Made by a program: the position numbers and the translations under genes. This document shows, piece after piece, positions 8,273-16,739 of a stretch of 64,000 bases of DNA. This DNA comes from Formivibrio citricus (GTDB lineage Bacteria; Pseudomonadota; Gammaproteobacteria; Burkholderiales; Chitinibacteraceae). Under the pieces are notes generated by a model that was given only the letters and a program-made list of their open reading frames with translations, was not told the DNA's origin and made no database searches. The DNA lies in NCBI RefSeq assembly GCF_900115065.1, contig NZ_FOVE01000010.1:1-64000 (forward strand). The letters are read 5' to 3'. Within the stretch, counting starts at the first letter, position 1; each line of letters starts with the position of its first letter.

Positions 8273-9982
8273 ATGCAGATCCAGACCAACGTGCCGTCGC
8301 TGTTTGTTCAGCGCCAGCTCGAAAAATCCTCCGAGGGGCTCAATACGAGCCTTCGGCGGTTGTCGTCCGGACTGCGCATCAATTCCGCGAAAGACGATGC
8401 CGCCGGACTGGCGATCAGCGAGCGCATGGATTCGCTGATACGCGGCAACACCCAGGCGCGCCGCAACGTGAACGACGGTGTTTCCCTGCTGCAGACCGCA
8501 GAGGGCGCCATGCAAACGGTAACGGACAGCATCCAGCGCATTCGCGAGCTGGCCGTGCAGGCCGCCAACGCCACCAACAGTTTGGGCGACAAACAGGCCC
8601 TGCAGCAGGAAGCCAACCAGCTCTTGCAAAACATCGACCAGATCGCCGGCCAAACCGAATTCAACGGCGAAAAAATCTTCTCGCAAAACCGCAACAGCCT
8701 GAGCGGCACCGCCGCCGAACGGGCCGTACTCGATGGCTTGAAGCTGGGCTGGCTCGAAGAATCCGTCGAGCGCATCCAGACCTATTACGGCATCACGGGC
8801 GACAACGCCGCCACGCTCGAAATCGTTCTGACGCCACCAGTCGGCTCCGGGCTCACCTCCTCGCCCGGCGGCGTACTGGCCGCGGTCGGCAGCCTGACCG
8901 GCACAGCCGACGGACAGGGCCGCACGCTCAATCCCTTCCTCTATGTTGACATGGCGGATTTCACCCCGCCCAACCTGCCCGACGGCGGCAGCGCGCCGAT
9001 CTACAACGACCGGATCATCGCGCACGAGATGGTGCATGCCGTCATGGGCCGATCGATGAATTTCAACAGCGTGGGCGCACTGCCAAGCTGGTTCAAGGAA
9101 GGCGCGGCCGAATTCATCCACGGCGCAGACGAGCGCCTGAGCACGGATTACAACGGCGGCGCCGGCCTGGCAACGATCCTCACGGCATTCGGCAACGACG
9201 ATGTATCGGCCAGCGCCGGCTATTCGGCAGGCTACGCCGCAGTTCGCTACATGCACCAGAAGATCAAGGAAGCGGGCGGGGACGGCATCAAGGACATCAT
9301 GGTCTACCTGAACCAGAATGCCGGTTCCGATCTCTCCCAAGCCCTGACCAATGCGAGCAGTGGCGCTTTTGCCGATCTGGCGGGCTTCAAGGCCGATTTC
9401 AATGCCGATGCCGGAGCATTCATCGGCGGCATGAACCTGACCAACTCCGACACCGGCGCCATCGGCGGATACGACACCGATCAGGGATCGGTCCTCTCGG
9501 CCAAGGATATTCTTCTGGATCGCGGCGACACCATCGCCGAAACGCAGGTCGACGGCTTCGCGCTGGATTACCAGAGCGTGGGCGGCGTGGACCGGAAGAG
9601 CTTTGCCCTGCAGGTTGGCGCCAAGAGCAACGAAACCATTACGGCCTCGATCGCAGCCATGAACGTCTCCGCGCTGGGAATCGACAGCGTCGATCTCGTC
9701 AACCTGCCGCAGTTTGCCCTGTACGACCTCGACAAGGCGCTGGATTTCGTCAGCAAGCATCGCGCGGAAATCGGTGGAGCCCAATCACGGCTGGAAAGCA
9801 CCGCCGCCCAACTGGAAACGTCCATCGAAAGCCAGTCGGCCGCCCGTTCGCGCATCCGCGACGCGGATTACGCCACCGAAACCGCCTCCCTCACCCGGCA
9901 GAACATCCTGCGGCAAGCGGGCACCGCGATGCTGTCGCAAGCCAACAGCATGCCCAACCTCGTCCTGCAACTGCTCCGCTAA
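8273..9982 (+). CDS. Flagellin with an embedded HExxH zinc-metallopeptidase-like central domain (flagellinolysin-type proteolytic flagellin).
   Basis: The N-terminal D0/D1 region is MQIQTNVPSLFVQRQLEKSSEGLNTSLRRLSSGLRINSAKDDAAG and the C-terminal D0 region is ...LTRQNILRQAGTAMLSQANSMPNLVLQLLR. The hypervariable region contains IAHEMVHAVMG followed by EGAAEFIHG, that is HExxH plus a downstream Glu. Confidence 0.8.
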   Translation: MQIQTNVPSLFVQRQLEKSSEGLNTSLRRLSSGLRINSAKDDAAGLAISERMDSLIRGNTQARRNVNDGVSLLQTAEGAMQTVTDSIQRIRELAVQAANATNSLGDKQALQQEANQLLQNIDQIAGQTEFNGEKIFSQNRNSLSGTAAERAVLDGLKLGWLEESVERIQTYYGITGDNAATLEIVLTPPVGSGLTSSPGGVLAAVGSLTGTADGQGRTLNPFLYVDMADFTPPNLPDGGSAPIYNDRIIAHEMVHAVMGRSMNFNSVGALPSWFKEGAAEFIHGADERLSTDYNGGAGLATILTAFGNDDVSASAGYSAGYAAVRYMHQKIKEAGGDGIKDIMVYLNQNAGSDLSQALTNASSGAFADLAGFKADFNADAGAFIGGMNLTNSDTGAIGGYDTDQGSVLSAKDILLDRGDTIAETQVDGFALDYQSVGGVDRKSFALQVGAKSNETITASIAAMNVSALGIDSVDLVNLPQFALYDLDKALDFVSKHRAEIGGAQSRLESTAAQLETSIESQSAARSRIRDADYATETASLTRQNILRQAGTAMLSQANSMPNLVLQLLR

Positions 9983-10349: not shown

Positions 10350-11951
10350 TTATTTTCCTTTCTGGTTGAAAACACTTACCTGCTGCCAATCCAGGCCAAA
10401 CCGGGCCAGATATTTTCGCAGCCGATCCGCATCGTTGGGTTGTTTTTTGTCTTTGCGCGAACAGGCAAACAATTTGCGACCTGCATCGGACAAACTGGTC
10501 GATTCGCGGCATACGCTCAATACCCCTTCCAGTTGAATCCGGTCAAAGACATCCAGCTCTGCCGCGGCATCCCCCAGTAGCTCAGCCAGGGCATCTGCTT
10601 TGCCTGGTAGCCGCCAGTTGGCCTGCAGCCGTTCAATTTCATCATCCACCACCGCCGTGGTGATTCGCCCGGACTCAGCCAAGGTAGCCATGCGGCTGAC
10701 CGAGGCCGAGAGCTCCCGGAAATTACCGCTCCAGCAGGCTTGAGTGGTGGTGGCAAACGCCAGATAGCGTAGCCGGGCTTCGGTATTGAAACGCACCTGT
10801 TCCCCCTGCTCGCGCGCGAACCGTGCCAATTCGAATTCAATATTTGGCTCGATATCTTCACTGCGCGCAGCCAGCCCCGGTAATTGGTAAGTCCATAGAT
10901 TGATCCGTGCAAACAGGTCTTCGCGGAATTTCCCTTCGGCAACCCACTGGCGAAGGTCACGGCAGGTGCCGGCGATCAACTGGAAATTACTGCTGGCCTC
11001 GCGATCCGAGCCAAACGGGAAGAAACGCTTTTCCTCGATGGCCTTCAGCAGCATGGCTTGTTCATCCAGTCCCAATTCGCCGATTTCATCCAGAAACAGC
11101 ACACCGCCATCAGCAGCGCGCAGCAAACCGGCCCGTTCATTCGCCGCGCCGGTAAAAGCGCCTTTGGCATGTCCGAACAGCGCAGACATTGCCGCATCGC
11201 CGCGCAAGGTAGCGCAATTGACTTCTACAAACTCGCCGGCAAGTTGCCGGCGCTGGCGCTTGAGCTCATACAGTCGCCGCGCCAGAAACGATTTGCCCGC
11301 GCCGGTCGGCCCAATCAGCAACAGTGGCGCTTTCGAGCGCACCGCTACACGTTCGATTTCCTCAATCATCCGGTTGAAAGCCGCATTGCGCGTGGCGATC
11401 CCCGACTTGAGAAAAGACACCGTTTCAGCCTGCTCGCGGGCAAACCGCTGGGCTATTTTGTCGTAACGGGACAAATCCAGATCAATGATCGTCGCCGTCC
11501 CCAGCGTCTCCCCTCGCCGTTTGACGGGCGGGGAAGTCTGGATCAATCGCGCAGGCAAGTAGCGCGATTCTGCCAGCAGGAACCAGCAAATCTGCGCCAC
11601 ATGCGTCCCGGTGGTGATGTGGATCAGGTAATCCTCGTTATCCAGATCAAACGGATAAGTCGCTGCAAAATCATGCAGCAGGCTATACACCTCTTCGAAA
11701 TCCCAGGGGTTTTGCAGCACCACCTCTCGCGGCTCGATCGTGGTTTCAGGGGATACCTGAGCAATATCCAGCGTAATCCGCGATACCAGCCCCCGGCTGC
11801 GCTCATCGTGCAGCAGCACCAAACGGTCGACGATCTGATCTTCCTGCTGGCACAGGCAAACCGTAGGCCGCCACTTGCTCCATCGCTCCGCCCCTTTCCC
11901 CACGTAATCGAGCACGGTGCCGACAAAGCCGATCACCACCGTTTTGCGCAT
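10350..11951 (-). CDS. rtcR: Sigma-54-dependent transcriptional regulator RtcR.
   Basis: The match to RtcR runs the full length: MRKTVVIGFVGTVLDYVGKGAERWSKWRPTVCLCQQ..., Walker A GPTGAGKS and the GAFTGA motif. ATG verified at 11949-11951. Confidence 0.92.
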   Translation of the reverse strand: MRKTVVIGFVGTVLDYVGKGAERWSKWRPTVCLCQQEDQIVDRLVLLHDERSRGLVSRITLDIAQVSPETTIEPREVVLQNPWDFEEVYSLLHDFAATYPFDLDNEDYLIHITTGTHVAQICWFLLAESRYLPARLIQTSPPVKRRGETLGTATIIDLDLSRYDKIAQRFAREQAETVSFLKSGIATRNAAFNRMIEEIERVAVRSKAPLLLIGPTGAGKSFLARRLYELKRQRRQLAGEFVEVNCATLRGDAAMSALFGHAKGAFTGAANERAGLLRAADGGVLFLDEIGELGLDEQAMLLKAIEEKRFFPFGSDREASSNFQLIAGTCRDLRQWVAEGKFREDLFARINLWTYQLPGLAARSEDIEPNIEFELARFAREQGEQVRFNTEARLRYLAFATTTQACWSGNFRELSASVSRMATLAESGRITTAVVDDEIERLQANWRLPGKADALAELLGDAAAELDVFDRIQLEGVLSVCRESTSLSDAGRKLFACSRKDKKQPNDADRLRKYLARFGLDWQQVSVFNQKGK

Positions 11952-12103
11952 TTTGACTTATCCAAAAAGATAAACAACGATTTTATCGTATCAGAAAGAT
12001 GACAATTGCGATAACCAAAAATTCCAGAATCATTATGCAATATCTATTTTTTATTGTTGTTTTTCAATGAATTACACATTCAATTCCCTCCAGTGCCTTT
12101 CTC

Positions 12104-12119
12104 TGGCACGCCTCTCGCT
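12104..12119 (+). promoter_or_regulatory. Putative sigma-54 (-24/-12) promoter driving the rtc locus.
   Basis: TGGCAC-gcctc-TCGCT compared with the consensus TGGCAC-N5-TTGCW. It is divergent from rtcR and upstream of the tRNA-like modules and rtcB. Confidence 0.5.
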
Positions 12120-12240
12120 ATTTATGATTTGCCGCAAAACTGCAGTCGCCCACGGTCCGGGGCTCAAAACCCCCGACGGTGCGCAAAAGCCGGACAAATC
12201 TGTTGCCGATGCGCATGCCGCACTGCCAAAGAAACGGTAC

Positions 12241-12358
12241 CGACGTTGCTGGTGCTTTGCCTGGGTTCGATTCCCGGAACGTCGCCTTCGATAGCTCAAT
12301 GGGTAGAGCCTCCGCCTAATAAGTGGACTGTCGCGGGTTCGAGTCCCGCTCGAAAATT
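12241..12358 (+). ncRNA. Tandem tRNA-like modules (Y-RNA / YrlA-like tRNA mimic). This is not a canonical tRNA.
   Basis: Module 1 is CGACGTT-[13 nt]-CTGGG TTCGATT CCCGG-AACGTCG, an acceptor-like 7-bp stem plus a T-arm with no D or anticodon arms. Module 2 is TTCGA-TA-GCTC AATGGGTA GAGC-C-TCCGC CTAATAA GTGGA-CTGTC-GCGGG TTCGAGT CCCGC-TCGAA, with a canonical D-arm and T-arm, a 5-bp frayed acceptor, no CCA, and an odd AAU anticodon position. Confidence 0.45.
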
Positions 12359-12581
12359 GCCTTGTAACGGCAAACATGGACGCAGTAAACCCGCCGGTGT
12401 GGCGCTTGCGCCACCGTCGATCCGGTCCGGCTTCAACGCCGGGTGATTGGCAGAATTGGCAAGATGGAATGGCCCCGAACCTTGGTACGGGACAACCAGG
12501 AAATCAAGCCCGTTCCCCCTCTTGCCCCGCGGCAAAGCCCGCCGGATCGATGCCCGCCGGCAATTATGAAGAGGTCAAAAA

Positions 12582-13727
12582 ATGATTATGTTCAAACGAT
12601 TGGTCATCAAGAAAAATCAGCGCGGATTGTTGCTGCGCGATGGCGACTTTGTCCGCATCGTCGAGCCGGGTGTTTTCCGTGCATTCGATCCGTTCAACCG
12701 CTATGGCATGGAGGTGTTTTCGCTCAACGATCCGCTGTTCAATAACCCGTTGGCCGATTACCTGCGCCAGAATGAATCCGGCGTACTGGATCAACACTTC
12801 CTGCGCATGGATTTGAGCGAAGACGAAGTCGGCTTGCGTTATGAAGACAATATCCTGGTGGAAATTCTGCCGCCGGGAACCCGCAACCTGTACTGGAAAG
12901 GCTTTATCGCCCAGCGACTGGAGAGAATCAACCTGCAAGAAGGGTTCCGTCTGCCTGCAGCGCTCGCGGCACGGTTGACCCAGCAGGCTTTGCGTAATCG
13001 CATCGTCAAAGGGTTGAACGCAGTACTGGCCGTACAAGTGCCGGAATGGAATATTGGCCTGTTGCGGGTCAACGGCGAGCTGACGGAACTGCTGTCGCCG
13101 GGGCAATATGCCTTCTGGCGCTTCAACCGCGAACTATCCGTGGAAGTGATCGACACCCGCTTGCAAGCCATCGAGGTTTCCGGCCAGGAAATTCTGACCC
13201 GAGACAAGGTGGCACTGCGGATCAATTTGGCGGCGTCCTGGCGTTTTACCGATATCAAGCAGGCATTTTCGACCATCAGCAAGCCGGTTGAGCATCTTTA
13301 CCGCGAACTGCAATTTGGTCTGCGTGCCGCGGTGGGCACCCGCACGCTGGATGAGTTGCTGGAAAACAAGCTGATTATCGACGAAGTCGTCACAGCACAT
13401 GTCGGCAAGAAGTTGGCAGGTATGGGTCTGGAAGTTTCGGCTATTGGCGTCAAGGACATCATCCTGCCGGGCGAGATGAAGACCATACTGGCTCAAGTGG
13501 TTGAAGCCGAAAAAGCCGCGCAAGCCAATGTCATCCGCCGCCGCGAAGAAACCGCAGCGACCCGCTCGCTGCTGAACACCGCCAAGGTGATGGAAGACAA
13601 CCCGACCGCGCTACGCCTGAAAGAACTGGAAACGCTGGAGCGTGTAGCCGAACGCATTGACCGGATCTCCGTCTTTGGCGGGCTGGATCAAGTGCTGAAC
13701 GGATTGGTCACCATCAAGGGCGCATAA
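12582..13727 (+). CDS. SPFH / band-7 (slipin-like) family protein encoded inside the rtc locus.
   Basis: A band-7 domain (...VALRINLAASWRFTDIK...IILPGEMKTILAQVVEAEKAAQANVIRRREETAATRSLLNTAKV...). No obvious N-terminal TM segment. An RBS-like AGAGG precedes the ATG. Confidence 0.75.
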   Translation: MIMFKRLVIKKNQRGLLLRDGDFVRIVEPGVFRAFDPFNRYGMEVFSLNDPLFNNPLADYLRQNESGVLDQHFLRMDLSEDEVGLRYEDNILVEILPPGTRNLYWKGFIAQRLERINLQEGFRLPAALAARLTQQALRNRIVKGLNAVLAVQVPEWNIGLLRVNGELTELLSPGQYAFWRFNRELSVEVIDTRLQAIEVSGQEILTRDKVALRINLAASWRFTDIKQAFSTISKPVEHLYRELQFGLRAAVGTRTLDELLENKLIIDEVVTAHVGKKLAGMGLEVSAIGVKDIILPGEMKTILAQVVEAEKAAQANVIRRREETAATRSLLNTAKVMEDNPTALRLKELETLERVAERIDRISVFGGLDQVLNGLVTIKGA

Positions 13728-13781
13728 ACAACGATGGTCTCTCCCTTCGCGGGGGAGACCATGCAAGAAAGGAAACGAAAC

Positions 13782-14999
13782 ATGAATTACGAACAAATCG
13801 ACGTGGCCCAAGGCGCACCGATCAAGATGTGGACGCAAGGCGTGCCGGTGGAAGACGATGCCCGCGCCCAATTGATCAACACTGCCAGGATGCCCTTCAT
13901 CTTCAAACATCTGGCCGTGATGCCCGATGTGCACCTGGGTAAGGGTTCAACCATCGGCAGCGTGATCCCCACGCGGGGCGCCATCATCCCGGCGGCAGTG
14001 GGTGTGGATATTGGTTGCGGAATGTCCGCTGTGCGGACCAACCTGACCGCGGAAGACCTGCCTGCCGATCTGGCCAACCTGCGCGCAGCCATCGAACGCG
14101 CCATCCCGCATGGCCGGACCGTGACCCGCGGAGGCCGGGACAAAGGTAGCTGGGAAAACCCGCCCGATAACGTGAACGCACTGTGGGCGCAGTTGCAACC
14201 GGGGTTCGAGCGCATTACCGGCAAGTATCCGCGACTGAAAAACACCAACAACCACAAGCATCTGGGAACGTTGGGAACCGGCAACCACTTCATTGAAGTG
14301 TGTCTGGATACCGAAAACCGCGTCTGGTTCATGCTGCACTCCGGCTCCCGCGGAATCGGCAACGCTATCGGCGAGCTGTTTATCCGGCTGGCGCAGGAAG
14401 ACATGCACGATCAGCTCGACACCCTGCCTGATCGCAACCTCGCCTGGTTTGCCGAAGGCAGTGCGCACTTCGACGATTATGTCGACGCCGTGCACTGGGC
14501 GCAGGAATTCGCCCGGCTTAATCGCGTCGCCATGCTGGATAACCTGGTTGTCGCGGTAGAAGCCCTGCTGGATCGCAAGATTGAATTCGACGGCGCACCG
14601 GTGGATTGCCACCACAACTATGTGCAGAAAGAAACGCACTACGGCGAAGAGATTTTCGTGACCCGCAAAGGCGCGGTGCACGCCGGAAAGGGCGAAATGG
14701 GCATCATCCCCGGCTCGATGGGCGCCAAGAGCTATATCGTGCGCGGGCTGGGGAATCCGGAATCCTTCTGCTCATGCAGCCACGGCGCAGGCCGAACCAT
14801 GAGCCGCAACCAGGCCATGAAGCGCTTCACGGTCGAAGACCAGATCCGCGCCACCGCGCATGTGGAATGTAGAAAAGACAAGGACGTGATCGACGAAATC
14901 CCGATGGCCTACAAGGACATCGACGCCGTCATGGCCGCCCAGAGCGATCTGGTCGAAATCGTGCATACCTTGCGGCAGGTGGTATGCGTGAAGGGGTAA
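13782..14999 (+). CDS. rtcB: RNA-splicing ligase RtcB.
   Basis: MNYEQIDVAQGAPIKMWTQGVPVEDDARAQL...HLGKGSTIGSVI...GTGNHFIEV...CHHN, the RtcB His/Cys metal-site motifs. ATG verified at 13782. Confidence 0.95.
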   Translation: MNYEQIDVAQGAPIKMWTQGVPVEDDARAQLINTARMPFIFKHLAVMPDVHLGKGSTIGSVIPTRGAIIPAAVGVDIGCGMSAVRTNLTAEDLPADLANLRAAIERAIPHGRTVTRGGRDKGSWENPPDNVNALWAQLQPGFERITGKYPRLKNTNNHKHLGTLGTGNHFIEVCLDTENRVWFMLHSGSRGIGNAIGELFIRLAQEDMHDQLDTLPDRNLAWFAEGSAHFDDYVDAVHWAQEFARLNRVAMLDNLVVAVEALLDRKIEFDGAPVDCHHNYVQKETHYGEEIFVTRKGAVHAGKGEMGIIPGSMGAKSYIVRGLGNPESFCSCSHGAGRTMSRNQAMKRFTVEDQIRATAHVECRKDKDVIDEIPMAYKDIDAVMAAQSDLVEIVHTLRQVVCVKG

Positions 15000-15003
15000 A
15001 AAA

Positions 15004-15663
15004 ATGGACATGCTCCAGCAACAATGCGAACGGCTGAAGTTTCTGGCAGGCAAGCCAGAAACCGAGGCGGCCCGTAATGAAGTATTGCTGGCTTTGACCA
15101 GCAAATGGGACGGGGTGCGGGTCAACGCTGCCAAAGTATTGGGAAGCTGGGGCGGCCCGGCCAATATGGCTGTTTTGTTGCACCGGTACGCCGAAACCAG
15201 GCAATACAGTGGAGAACGATCCGGTATCCGCAAGGCGCTCTGCCTTGCGGTGTCCGACAACGATGCTCACTGGCTTATCGATTGCTGTTTCAAGCCGGGA
15301 CTAGTGGAACGGTCTTGTGCCATCGAGATGCTCAGTCATCTTTCGGGAAATGTTTTGCACCAGGCGTTGGCCCGCTTGAATGGGCAAGATGATGAGGTGC
15401 GGCATCTGCACTGCGATCTGCTTTTCCGCACTCGAAGCTATCCAGACCGGATCAAGTCTTTGCAAGCCTTGAGCAGCGACATCAACCCCACAATCGCCTT
15501 GCGGGCCCGGCAATACTTATCCTGGTTGAAATGGGTTGAGCCCGCGTTGTTTAACACGGAACCGGCCAAACCCAACCATTCCTCTCGCGGGAAAGCCTTT
15601 GACCGCAAGTTCAACCGCGCAAAACAGAAACGGCAGCTCGCAATACGGAAGGAATCAATGTGA
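15004..15663 (+). CDS. Hypothetical HEAT-repeat-like protein between rtcB and rtcA.
   Basis: Alpha-helical repeat character (NEVLLALTSKWDGVRVNAAKVLGSWGG...). It is co-oriented with rtcB/rtcA and separated from each by a few bp. Confidence 0.45.
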   Translation: MDMLQQQCERLKFLAGKPETEAARNEVLLALTSKWDGVRVNAAKVLGSWGGPANMAVLLHRYAETRQYSGERSGIRKALCLAVSDNDAHWLIDCCFKPGLVERSCAIEMLSHLSGNVLHQALARLNGQDDEVRHLHCDLLFRTRSYPDRIKSLQALSSDINPTIALRARQYLSWLKWVEPALFNTEPAKPNHSSRGKAFDRKFNRAKQKRQLAIRKESM

Positions 15664-15707
15664 ACTCCAGAGTTATTCCCCCGGCGCAACACCAGAAAGA
15701 ACCCGAA

Positions 15708-16739
15708 ATGAACATGATTGAACTCAATGGCGCCCATGGCGAAGGGGGCGGGCAGATTCTTCGGACCGCCCTCACGCTGTCGATGCTGACCGGCATCCCG
15801 TTCCGGATTAACCGCATCCGGGCCAAGCGCGCCAAGCCGGGCTTGCTGCGCCAGCATCTGACGGCGGTATCCGCTGCGGCGGCCGTTTGCGGGGCCAACG
15901 TGGATGGGGCGGCACTGGGCTCGACGGCGCTCACGTTTACGCCCGGCGCCATTCGGGGCGGGGATTACCGCTTTGCCATTGGCAGCGCCGGCAGCACCAC
16001 ACTGGTCTTGCAAACCATTCTGCCCGCGCTGTGGTTTGCCGATGCGGCCTCTACGGTCCATGTATCAGGCGGCACGCACAACCCCGCTGCCCCGCCCGTG
16101 GATTTTCTGCAGCAGTCCTGGCTGCCTCTCATGCGGCGCATGAGGGTACAGACCGAGCTGGAATGTCTGCGACACGGGTTTTTCCCTGCAGGGGGCGGAG
16201 AAGTCTGCGCCAAGGTCGCGCCGGTTTCCGGCAAGCTTCAGCCGCTGACGCTGGAGTCTCGCGGAGAGTGGCGGGCAACCCGCGCCGTAGCCATTGTGGC
16301 GGGCGTACCGGGGGAAGTGGCCAAGCGGGAATTGGAACAGGTTGAATCGCTGTTGGGGCCAATGGACACCGAATTGCGCAGCCTGCCCGCACGGGAAGGG
16401 CCGGGCAATGTGGTCATGGTATCGCTGGCATACGAACACGTTTGCGAGACGTTTGTGGCTTTTGGCGAGCGGTCACTGGCCGCAGAAACGGTAGCCCAAA
16501 AAGTGGCTGGGGAAGCCCGGCGTTATCGGGAGGGAGGCGCAGCCGTCGGCGAACACCTTGCCGACCAATTGGCGCTGCCTTTGGCGCTGGCCGGCGGAGG
16601 CCGTTTCACCACAAACCGAGTCTCGGATCATCTCCGGACCAATCTGGACGTGATCGGTCAATTTCTGCCCGTACGCGGCGACATTTCCGAAATCACGCCG
16701 GGCGTTTGGGCCGTGGATGTGCAACCCTTGGCCGTTTGA
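15708..16739 (+). CDS. rtcA: RNA 3'-terminal phosphate cyclase RtcA.
   Basis: MNMIELNGAHGEGGGQILRTALTLSMLTGIPFRINRIRAKRAKPGLLRQHLTAV is highly similar to the RtcA N-terminus. The start is at 15708 or 15714. Confidence 0.9.
   Translation: MNMIELNGAHGEGGGQILRTALTLSMLTGIPFRINRIRAKRAKPGLLRQHLTAVSAAAAVCGANVDGAALGSTALTFTPGAIRGGDYRFAIGSAGSTTLVLQTILPALWFADAASTVHVSGGTHNPAAPPVDFLQQSWLPLMRRMRVQTELECLRHGFFPAGGGEVCAKVAPVSGKLQPLTLESRGEWRATRAVAIVAGVPGEVAKRELEQVESLLGPMDTELRSLPAREGPGNVVMVSLAYEHVCETFVAFGERSLAAETVAQKVAGEARRYREGGAAVGEHLADQLALPLALAGGGRFTTNRVSDHLRTNLDVIGQFLPVRGDISEITPGVWAVDVQPLAV

Follow-up and report, generated by a model that had tools for sequence, protein, structure and literature searches.

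What do a protein of the SPFH family and an RNA resembling tRNA contribute to an operon for RNA repair? The question is raised by a locus of Formivibrio citricus in the first 64,000 nucleotides (nt) of contig NZ_FOVE01000010.1, the stretch that was analysed here and is called the window below. In this locus, the regulatory gene rtcR (10350-11951, minus strand) is divergent from four genes on the plus strand, which encode a stomatin-like SPFH/Band-7 protein ('slipin') of 381 amino acids (12582-13727), the RNA 3'-phosphate/5'-OH ligase RtcB (13734-14999), a 219-amino-acid HEAT-like alpha-solenoid protein with a basic C-terminal helix, taken as an accessory (15004-15663), and the RNA 3'-terminal phosphate cyclase RtcA (15660-16739). 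An earlier note on this stretch had described this layout, with a divergent sigma-54 promoter at 12104 and two tRNA-like modules between rtcR and the SPFH gene, and our analysis confirmed it at those positions, at a level well beyond chance. Comparison with related loci indicates that the two modules are part of a larger conserved folded leader of about 430 nt (12130-12561), and the locus is very probably a member of the Band-7/b7a-tRNA/RtcB class of RNA-repair operons, here under RtcR/sigma-54 control.

The comparison was built on the Band-7 protein. The search returned at least 8000 homologues; the 120 matches listed were 57-92% identical to it, and they came from Pseudomonas, Burkholderia, Cupriavidus, Rhodocyclales and Chitinimonas. 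Eighty Band-7 loci of gamma- and beta-proteobacteria were fetched, which together with the window gave 81 intergenic regions. The stretch from the promoter to the ribosome-binding site aligned across genera. Since RNAalifold on one global alignment of the whole leader recovered only fragments, the leader was analysed domain by domain, with slid pairing partners as the control for the fraction of paired cells and shuffles as the control for compensatory cells.

The first domain, domain A (12127-12243, plus strand), is predicted to fold into a three-way junction. In a MAFFT alignment of 37 loci we recognised the helices P2 (12142-12149 with 12220-12226), the hairpin P3 (12155-12162 with 12171-12177) and the long hairpin P4 (12178-12219). 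In these helices 94% of cells were paired, compared with 36-56% for slid partners, and 157 cells were compensatory, compared with 49 in shuffles. A covariance model of this domain (R1) was searched over 889 kb of loci, and it gave exactly one match per locus in 79 of the 80 loci as well as in the window (80.2 bits), including loci that lack rtcR and were outside the seed. All matches shared the strand of the Band-7 gene and lay about 380-560 nt 5' of it, and nothing else was found in the 889 kb.

Domain A is followed by the two tRNA-like modules. Module 1 (12241-12284, plus strand) was read directly from the sequence and is supported by covariation of its T arm. It consists of a 7-bp acceptor stem (12241-12247 with 12278-12284, CGACGUU/AACGUCG) and a T arm (12261-12277, CUGGG-UUCGAUU-CCCGG), and it has no anticodon arm: a 13-nt insert (12248-12260), a mini D-like hairpin, stands where the D and anticodon arms would be. 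The acceptor stem was evaluated as an excess of perfect 7/7 complements over shuffled strands, because a free search for the 5' strand in each locus is not significant alone (about 43% of random cases reach 6/7 pairs). Among 47 distinct 3' strands of related loci, 21 had a perfect 7-mer complement upstream, compared with 5.6% of shuffled strands (P ~2e-14). The last acceptor base of module 1 (12284) directly abuts position 1 of module 2 (12285-12356, plus strand), which is the homologue of the b7a-tRNA and is a cloverleaf without CCA, with a 5-bp acceptor (12287-12291 with 12350-12354), a D arm (12294-12309), an anticodon arm (12311-12327) and a T arm (12333-12349). ARAGORN called it tRNA-Ile(AAT) at 12284-12358, and the tRNA model of Rfam 15 (RF00005) matched 12285-12357, 225 nt upstream of the Band-7 gene, with 53.1 bits against a gathering score of 29. 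Its outer acceptor pairs 1:72 and 2:71 are mismatched. The acceptor has only 4-5 pairs, since 10 of 21 beta-type orthologues do not form the outermost of the five that are left. The description of both modules in the earlier note, the first as an acceptor-like stem of 7 bp plus a T arm and the second as having a D arm, a T arm, a frayed acceptor and no CCA, was thus borne out. Directly after module 2 comes a hairpin that looks like a free anticodon stem-loop (12357-12373, plus strand; UUGCC-UUGUAAC-GGCAA), with a 5-bp stem, of which four of the five pairs covary, and a 7-nt loop with the consensus C/U-U-NNN-A-C/A. An unbiased MAFFT alignment of 22 beta-type sequences, folded by RNAalifold, recovered the module-2 cloverleaf and the module-1 T arm. 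For the modules and the following hairpin together, 95% of cells were paired compared with 37-48% for slid partners, and 13 pairs showed compensatory changes.

The twin-module arrangement is the rule in these loci. Two T-arm modules 62-90 nt apart were present in 68 of the 81 intergenic regions and one in six; the spacer between the modules varied from -1 to +5 nt across loci, and both modules run in the normal tRNA strand order (acceptor-D-anticodon-T-acceptor). ARAGORN alone made tRNA-like calls upstream of the Band-7 gene in 60 of the 81 regions: most Pseudomonas loci received a tandem pair of calls with a slight overlap, most beta-proteobacterial loci a single one. The insert of module 1 differs between lineages: it is 39-42 nt long in Pseudomonas, where full D and anticodon arms make a complete cloverleaf, 19-24 nt in Comamonadaceae, and 12-16 nt in the window, Rhodocyclales and Burkholderia, where it is a small hairpin with a GG-containing loop. 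In module 2, U8, the D stem GCUC/GAGC, the GG of the D-loop and the T arm are near invariant, while the anticodon loop varies from 4 to 9 nt: across 68 loci it takes 37 distinct forms, has the canonical 7 nt in only 34, and is often a tetraloop of the GNRA or UUCG type (GAAA, GCAA, UUCG). Because the loop varies in this way while the D stem, the D-loop GG and the T arm hardly change, selection can be said to act on the elbow of the L-shape and on the acceptor/T stack rather than on decoding. Three Pseudomonas loci had no T-arm module: in P. aegrilactucae, P. donghuensis and P. rubra (L007:4679-4740, L018 and L023) no T-loop-bearing module was seen, and two plain hairpins stand in its place. 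The hairpin of the 12357-12373 type is retained even where both modules are lost.

The last part of the leader, domain C (12393-12561, plus strand), is predicted to be a long rod, an architecture shared by the minimum-free-energy folds of seven divergent orthologues. It has a closing helix (12393-12398 with 12556-12561), a small hairpin (12399-12414) and a long-range helix (12415-12426 with 12541-12552), and the strands of the closing helices lie about 130-165 nt apart. In domain C as a whole 81.8% of cells were paired compared with 30-43% for slid partners, with 213 compensatory cells compared with 88 in shuffles; in the 10-pair long-range helix, 94.8% were paired and nine of the ten pairs covary. 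No family of Rfam 15 matched domain A or domain C. Other Rfam matches in the leader (mascRNA, plastid motifs and atoC) fell far short of their thresholds and reflect generic tRNA-like features. The closing helix of domain C does not include the ribosome-binding site (12570-12574), and in other loci an A-rich linker follows this helix. Some Band-7 entries are 511-534 amino acids long (P0003, P0007, P0011, P0021, P0031 and L072:4560-6137) instead of the usual 378-381, and they look like over-extensions of the start codon through the GC-rich structured leader.

The position of the leader is tied to the Band-7 gene. Since the domain-A model matches once per locus in 79 of the 80 loci, those without rtcR included, the leader RNA is co-inherited with the Band-7 gene in near-obligate linkage and not with rtcR. 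The gene for RtcR was found about 650 nt upstream of the Band-7 gene in 59 of the 80 loci, rtcB downstream of it in at least 66, and rtcA in about 35, at variable distance. In Chitinimonas lacunae (L011), the Band-7 gene and the leader (domain A, 51 bits) are followed by a small open reading frame, with neither rtcR nor rtcB within 5 kb; because the pair stands there without rtcB, the RNA and the Band-7 protein can exist apart from the ligase. Viral contigs gave a single Band-7 relative, and because this was the only one we see no link to phages.

Transcription of the leader would begin at a sigma-54 (-24/-12) promoter (TGGCACGCCTCTCGCT, 12104-12119, plus strand). Its letters fit TGGCACG-N4-TCGCT, and it is the single match to TGGCACG-N4-TYGCW in the 64 kb, where 0.11 would be expected by chance. 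Of the 81 intergenic regions, 57 carry this motif some 150 nt away from the start of rtcR, and the usual spacing from the -12 element would place the transcript start near 12130. Upstream of the promoter there is a palindrome (TTATCCAAAAAGATAA, TTATC-N6-GATAA, 11958-11973, listed without a strand), which occupies the same position beside the rtcR start across genera and, as a relaxed pattern, occurs in 40 of the 54 rtcR loci over which the upstream motifs were counted; it is probably the upstream activating site to which RtcR would bind. Between the palindrome and the promoter is an IHF-like site (TTCAATGAATTA, 12063-12074, likewise without a strand) that is conserved across genera. A motif resembling WATCAA-N4-TTR was found 25-60 nt 5' of the promoter in 32 of the 54 loci, and the site in the window is probably a DNA-bending site, bound presumably by IHF. 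Taken together, the palindrome, the IHF-like site and the -24/-12 element form the classical layout of an enhancer-dependent promoter, on which RtcR presumably acts in the window.

The genes themselves were assigned with confidence. RtcR combines a CARF domain, an AAA+ sigma-54 activator domain and a helix-turn-helix domain (Pfam RtcR, E 8e-86; Sigma54_activat, E 1e-48) and matched the NCBIfam RtcR equivalog over its full length with 841 bits against a cut-off of 650. The Band-7 protein matched Pfam Band_7 with 97 bits, RtcB matched Pfam RtcB with 430 bits, and RtcA matched Pfam RTC with 272 bits and its NCBIfam equivalog with 456 bits against a cut-off of 352. The Band-7 stop codon is 6 nt from the start of rtcB, and the other genes are separated by 4-nt gaps or overlaps. 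A scan from the promoter through rtcA found no credible terminator, only weak matches at chance level inside genes; the view that none separates the SPFH gene from rtcB accordingly held. So did the statement that the operon has no Rsr: a Ro/TROVE gene is absent from the operon, which consists of band-7, rtcB, the HEAT-like gene and rtcA only, the rest of the 64-kb window not having been scanned for TROVE. PADLOC listed RtcR alone, with no match to a known defence system. In alignments with their homologues, RtcB and RtcA are covered only from about residue 15-17 of their open reading frames (about 17 for RtcA). The true starts of rtcB and rtcA are probably internal ATGs, near 13782 and at 15708, and not the first possible start codons.

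The Band-7 protein is 69% identical to P. aeruginosa PA4582. Its Pfam Band_7 domain spans residues 152-323, and a profile search found stomatins as the closest solved relatives (E 7e-23, residues 188-374); several of the related stomatin structures were deposited as 16-chain assemblies. No membrane segment or N-terminal anchor was detected in the protein, in which the highest 19-residue Kyte-Doolittle mean is 1.28. An AlphaFold2 model of low confidence (overall pLDDT 62.7, 11 sequences), too low for a reading of the N-terminal domain, has a beta-rich, hydrophilic N-terminal part of about 185 residues and long C-terminal helices (297-339 and 342-362). Residues 1-185 (window 12582-13140) repeat the first SPFH strands (RGLLLRDGDFVRIVEPGVFRAFDPFNR vs IGLLRVNGELTELLSPGQYAFWRFNR), suggestive of a partial duplication within the protein that stands where a membrane anchor would be.

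The 219-amino-acid protein is identical (100%) to Formivibrio citricus SAMN05660284_01567. With Pfam HEAT_2 it scored 22.3, below the threshold of 27.7; the profile of its family (16 sequences) matched HEAT-like alphaRep proteins with E 1e-16. Its AlphaFold2 model (pLDDT 92.8) is an alpha-solenoid of stacked helical hairpins (helices 3-178) followed by a basic helix, with 11 K/R in the last 34 residues, and Foldseek with this model gave TOG and alphaRep structures as the best matches in the PDB. The protein has three close homologues and 104 remote cluster representatives, three of the remote homologues lie on short contigs with uninformative surroundings, and by tblastn and phmmer it was found in only one of the 80 related loci. 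In most related loci, the gene before rtcA encodes instead an RlaP nucleotidyltransferase of 262-276 amino acids (PF10127, E 1e-97), and the window is without RlaP. The HEAT-like gene is a rare accessory in the usual place of RlaP and not a conserved member of the regulon. The earlier note had suggested both the SPFH and the HEAT-like protein as additional members of the regulon; their co-occurrence with rtcB stood for the first, in at least 66 of the 80 loci, and not for the second.

There are, all the same, links between the HEAT-like protein and the Band-7 system. One close homologue is encoded between rtcB and RlaP of a Band-7 operon (L082/L083), and in Ottowia (L080) a HEAT-like domain is fused to a treble-clef zinc finger, zf_Tbcl; encoded on its own by a small gene, this finger is the accessory seen most often between band-7 and rtcB. 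Because of this operon position and this fusion, we consider the HEAT-like protein to be tied to the Band-7 system. The separate zf_Tbcl gene encodes about 140 amino acids with a basic N-terminus (Pfam E 2e-12; L003:6143-6567, L012, L039, L042, L049 and L054) and is absent from the window. The same region in other loci carries unrelated HEAT proteins of 450-470 amino acids, a Barstar-like protein, a protein with a weak HEPN match and an NfeD-like protease. Comparison of the profile of the 219-amino-acid family with the 450-470-amino-acid HEAT proteins of other rtc loci gave generic repeat similarity only (probability 33%). Since other loci carry different proteins there, the slot after rtcB can be regarded as holding variable cargo, of which the HEAT-like gene of the window is one example. 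In L022:7697-8176, L042:7888-8520, L071 and L077, the accessories between band-7 and rtcB were a Barstar-like protein, a protein with a weak match to HEPN and a serine protease of the ClpP/NfeD type; they suggest links to toxin-antitoxin and SPFH-NfeD biology.

The genes flanking the operon are unrelated to it, with TfoX and a flagellin on one side and DUF4202 on the other. The flagellin gene (8273-9982, plus strand) has an insert bearing HEXXH (IAHEMVHAV) between Flagellin_N and Flagellin_C. The insert scored 25.8 bits with Pfam Peptidase_M9, just below the threshold of 26, and the protein looks like a proteolytic flagellin of the 'flagellinolysin' type.

How does this locus relate to known systems? 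Burroughs and Aravind (2016, Nucleic Acids Res 44:8525) reportedly predicted a Band-7/b7a-tRNA/RtcB class in which the RNA is a cofactor analogous to Y RNA. A passage of a later source that cites them states that in certain bacteria RtcB is encoded beside a Band-7 protein and a predicted non-coding RNA (10.1101/312249), and a full-text literature search for the association found only the Wang et al. preprint. As far as the class is set out in that passage, it resembles the window in having RtcB beside Band-7 and a tRNA-resembling RNA just upstream, conserved over many genomes. It differs in that a single tRNA-like RNA is described there, whereas the window and its relatives have two adjoining modules between two structured domains; in addition, the class usually has RlaP, instead of which the window has a small HEAT-like protein. 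The same layout is found in P. aeruginosa, in the order PA4581 rtcR, PA4581.1 tRNA, PA4582 SPFH, PA4583 rtcB, PA4584 and PA4585 rtcA (PMC8619066, PMC13086221, PMC13637947), where PA4582 is the SPFH protein PaFlo8 (PMC13086221) and PA4581.1, between rtcR and the operon, is annotated tRNA-Arg4 and lacks CCA (PMC13637947). In qRT-PCR, the RNA of PA4581.1, which is homologous to module 2, reached about half the amount measured for canonical tRNAs (PMC13637947). The P. aeruginosa locus thus shares with the window the divergent rtcR, the gene order and, at the corresponding intergenic site, a CCA-less tRNA-like gene. In the Pseudomonas relatives module 1 is a complete cloverleaf, which is unannotated in PAO1 (PMC13637947), whereas the window has a reduced module 1; and between rtcB and rtcA Pseudomonas loci have a protein of the RlaP family of 262-276 amino acids, whose counterpart PA4584 is assigned by position only, whereas the window has the HEAT-like protein. 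The SPFH protein and the tRNA mimic, taken in the earlier note as undescribed additions to the regulon, are in view of PA4581-PA4585 and the predicted class already known as a layout. Possibly new are the presence of two fused modules as a rule, the structured domains on either side of them and the small HEAT-like accessory.

Two better-known systems share parts of this design. The Salmonella rsr-yrlBA-rtcBA operon resembles the window in its RtcR/sigma-54 control and in a tRNA-mimicking RNA encoded together with RtcB and RtcA. Its ring-forming protein, however, is Ro/TROVE, in place of which the window has SPFH, and its YrlA RNA mimics one tRNA in circularly permuted form, with ends that make up a Ro-binding stem, whereas the RNA of the window is not recognised by the YrlA model. 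E. coli rtcR/rtcBA has the RtcR CARF activator, the divergent sigma-54 promoter, RtcB and RtcA in common with the window, and lacks the structured tRNA-like leader and the SPFH and HEAT genes, all of which the window has.

From these data we propose the following course of events. RNA damage would activate RtcR, so that transcription starts at 12104-12119; in Salmonella, the activating signal consists of tRNA 5' halves with a terminal 2',3'-cyclic phosphate (PMC7790460). The first ~430 nt of the transcript (12130-12561) would fold into the three-way junction, the two adjoining tRNA-like modules, the free anticodon-stem-loop look-alike and the long rod; the modules would retain the elbow of D-loop and T-loop as well as the acceptor/T stack, and have neither a working anticodon nor a CCA end. 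As an mRNA leader, or excised by tRNA-processing nucleases, this RNA would serve as a scaffold or cofactor and may associate with the soluble stomatin-like protein, which has ring-forming relatives among the solved structures. Such an assembly may present or organise RtcB and RtcA, with the HEAT-like protein as a possible adaptor, in the manner of Y RNA with Ro, and the tRNA-like elbows together with the other domains could engage both the stomatin-like assembly and the repair enzymes that recognise tRNA. The processing of the leader, its binding to protein and an effect on ligation are steps that we infer, and the scaffold/cofactor mechanism taken by itself is tentative. The explanation as a whole, in which membership of the class is combined with a folded leader acting as a scaffold or cofactor RNA, is the one that we favour, with modest confidence. 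That the entire leader represents an undescribed class of large structured RNA, forming with the soluble stomatin-like protein a ring-shaped RNA-protein repair particle comparable to Ro/Y RNA or vault-type particles, is a further but doubtful possibility. It is speculation that the permuted topology of YrlA arose from tandem tRNA-like dimers by loss of the two outer halves.

Several observations count against a scaffold or cofactor RNA that works through tRNA mimicry. The P. aegrilactucae, P. donghuensis and P. rubra loci (L007, L018 and L023) keep domains A and C, Band-7 and rtcB in spite of the loss of the modules, and because these three loci replaced both modules yet kept the operon, the mimicry is not indispensable. 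In P. aeruginosa, the level of PA4581.1 RNA is unchanged when the Rtc proteins are strongly induced (PMC13637947), and because of this constancy simple co-transcription from the RtcR promoter alone does not fit. Both the loss of the modules in some Pseudomonas and the constant level of PA4581.1 RNA under Rtc induction are awkward for any model. Moreover, the single-sequence fold of the window leader is unexceptional (z = -1.72), and the RNA is contiguous with the mRNA and free of terminators, which fits a cis-acting leader equally well. The Band-7-associated RNA was, in the relevant passage of one source, a prediction without experimental validation as of 2018 (10.1101/312249), and binding of the RNA to the SPFH protein, like an influence of either on RtcB, is presumed.

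The strongest competitor of a scaffold RNA, although we consider it unlikely, is a leader that acts only in cis, with the modules as processing signals for RNase P and 3' tRNA nucleases and with flanks that control the stability or translation of the band-7/rtcB mRNA, so that no particle is formed in trans. The structure indeed occupies the stretch from the promoter to the ribosome-binding site, where no terminator is seen, and it has kept its length and place in 79 of the 80 loci; the lineages without modules keep domains A and C. Module 1, furthermore, is an acceptor/T-arm minihelix, which is the minimal shape of an RNase P substrate. On the other hand, no sequestering helix is apparent, the ribosome-binding site at 12570-12574 being outside domain C; the conserved elbow nucleotides are unneeded for processing alone; and the amount of PA4581.1 RNA, about half that of canonical tRNAs, is independent of induction (PMC13637947), which also speaks against a purely cis-acting leader.

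An improbable alternative is that the modules are bait for tRNA-cleaving toxins, and that the resulting cyclic-phosphate fragments feed back on the CARF domain of RtcR or compete with real tRNAs for the nuclease. The activation of RtcR by cyclic-phosphate tRNA 5' halves agrees with this idea, competitive inhibition has been raised as a possible role of YrlA (PMC7790460 for both), and the conserved free hairpin of 5 bp and 7 nt has a loop with U33- and A37-like positions and an 'anticodon' that differs between species. The anticodon loop of module 2, however, is degenerate (4-9 nt) with common tetraloops, an anticodon arm is missing from module 1 in most beta-proteobacteria, and the RNA persists in loci that lack rtcR.

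The earlier note had likened the modules to YrlA, and a Y RNA of that type working without Ro is very improbable here. YrlA also mimics tRNA and is encoded beside rtcB in other bacteria (10.1101/312249, PMC4201824), and its Rfam model (RF02553) gave a weak match at 12260-12309. The score of 18.3 bits (E 0.49 in a 671-nt search) is nevertheless far under the gathering score of 69, and the match bridges the module-1 T arm and the module-2 D arm, a type of false positive known for dimeric tRNAs (Chen et al. 2014, PMC4201824), with the intervening 'acceptor' hairpin unpaired. In addition, the operon has no Ro/TROVE gene, and both modules are in normal, not permuted, strand order. Membership in YrlA was rejected on the gathering score, the missing Ro neighbour and the topology; the functional analogy stands.

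That module 2 is a genuine decoding tRNA-Ile(AAU) is hardly credible, although ARAGORN and the Rfam tRNA model both call it and the P. aeruginosa homologue carries a tRNA-Arg annotation: just 4-5 acceptor pairs are present and CCA is missing, the orthologues have unrelated 'anticodons' in loops of 4-9 nt, the module abuts module 1 (spacer -1 to +5 nt) inside a larger conserved structure, and A34 is unexpected for tRNA-Ile, bacterial A34 tRNAs being otherwise confined, to our knowledge, to tRNA-Arg(ACG). The 'anticodons' that ARAGORN assigned were unrelated between loci and many loops were of abnormal length, and the calls of tRNA-Ile, tRNA-Arg, tRNA-Met and so on for these elements are annotation errors.

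How an SPFH protein and a tRNA-like RNA contribute to bacterial RNA repair has been a question since the prediction of 2016. What was a 'tRNA-like gene next to Band-7' is now a defined RNA of about 430 nt with four domains and mapped helices. It is present in 79 of 80 loci; its elbow does not vary, and its anticodon arms can be dispensed with. This defined leader RNA can be probed directly in P. aeruginosa, at PA4581.1-PA4585.

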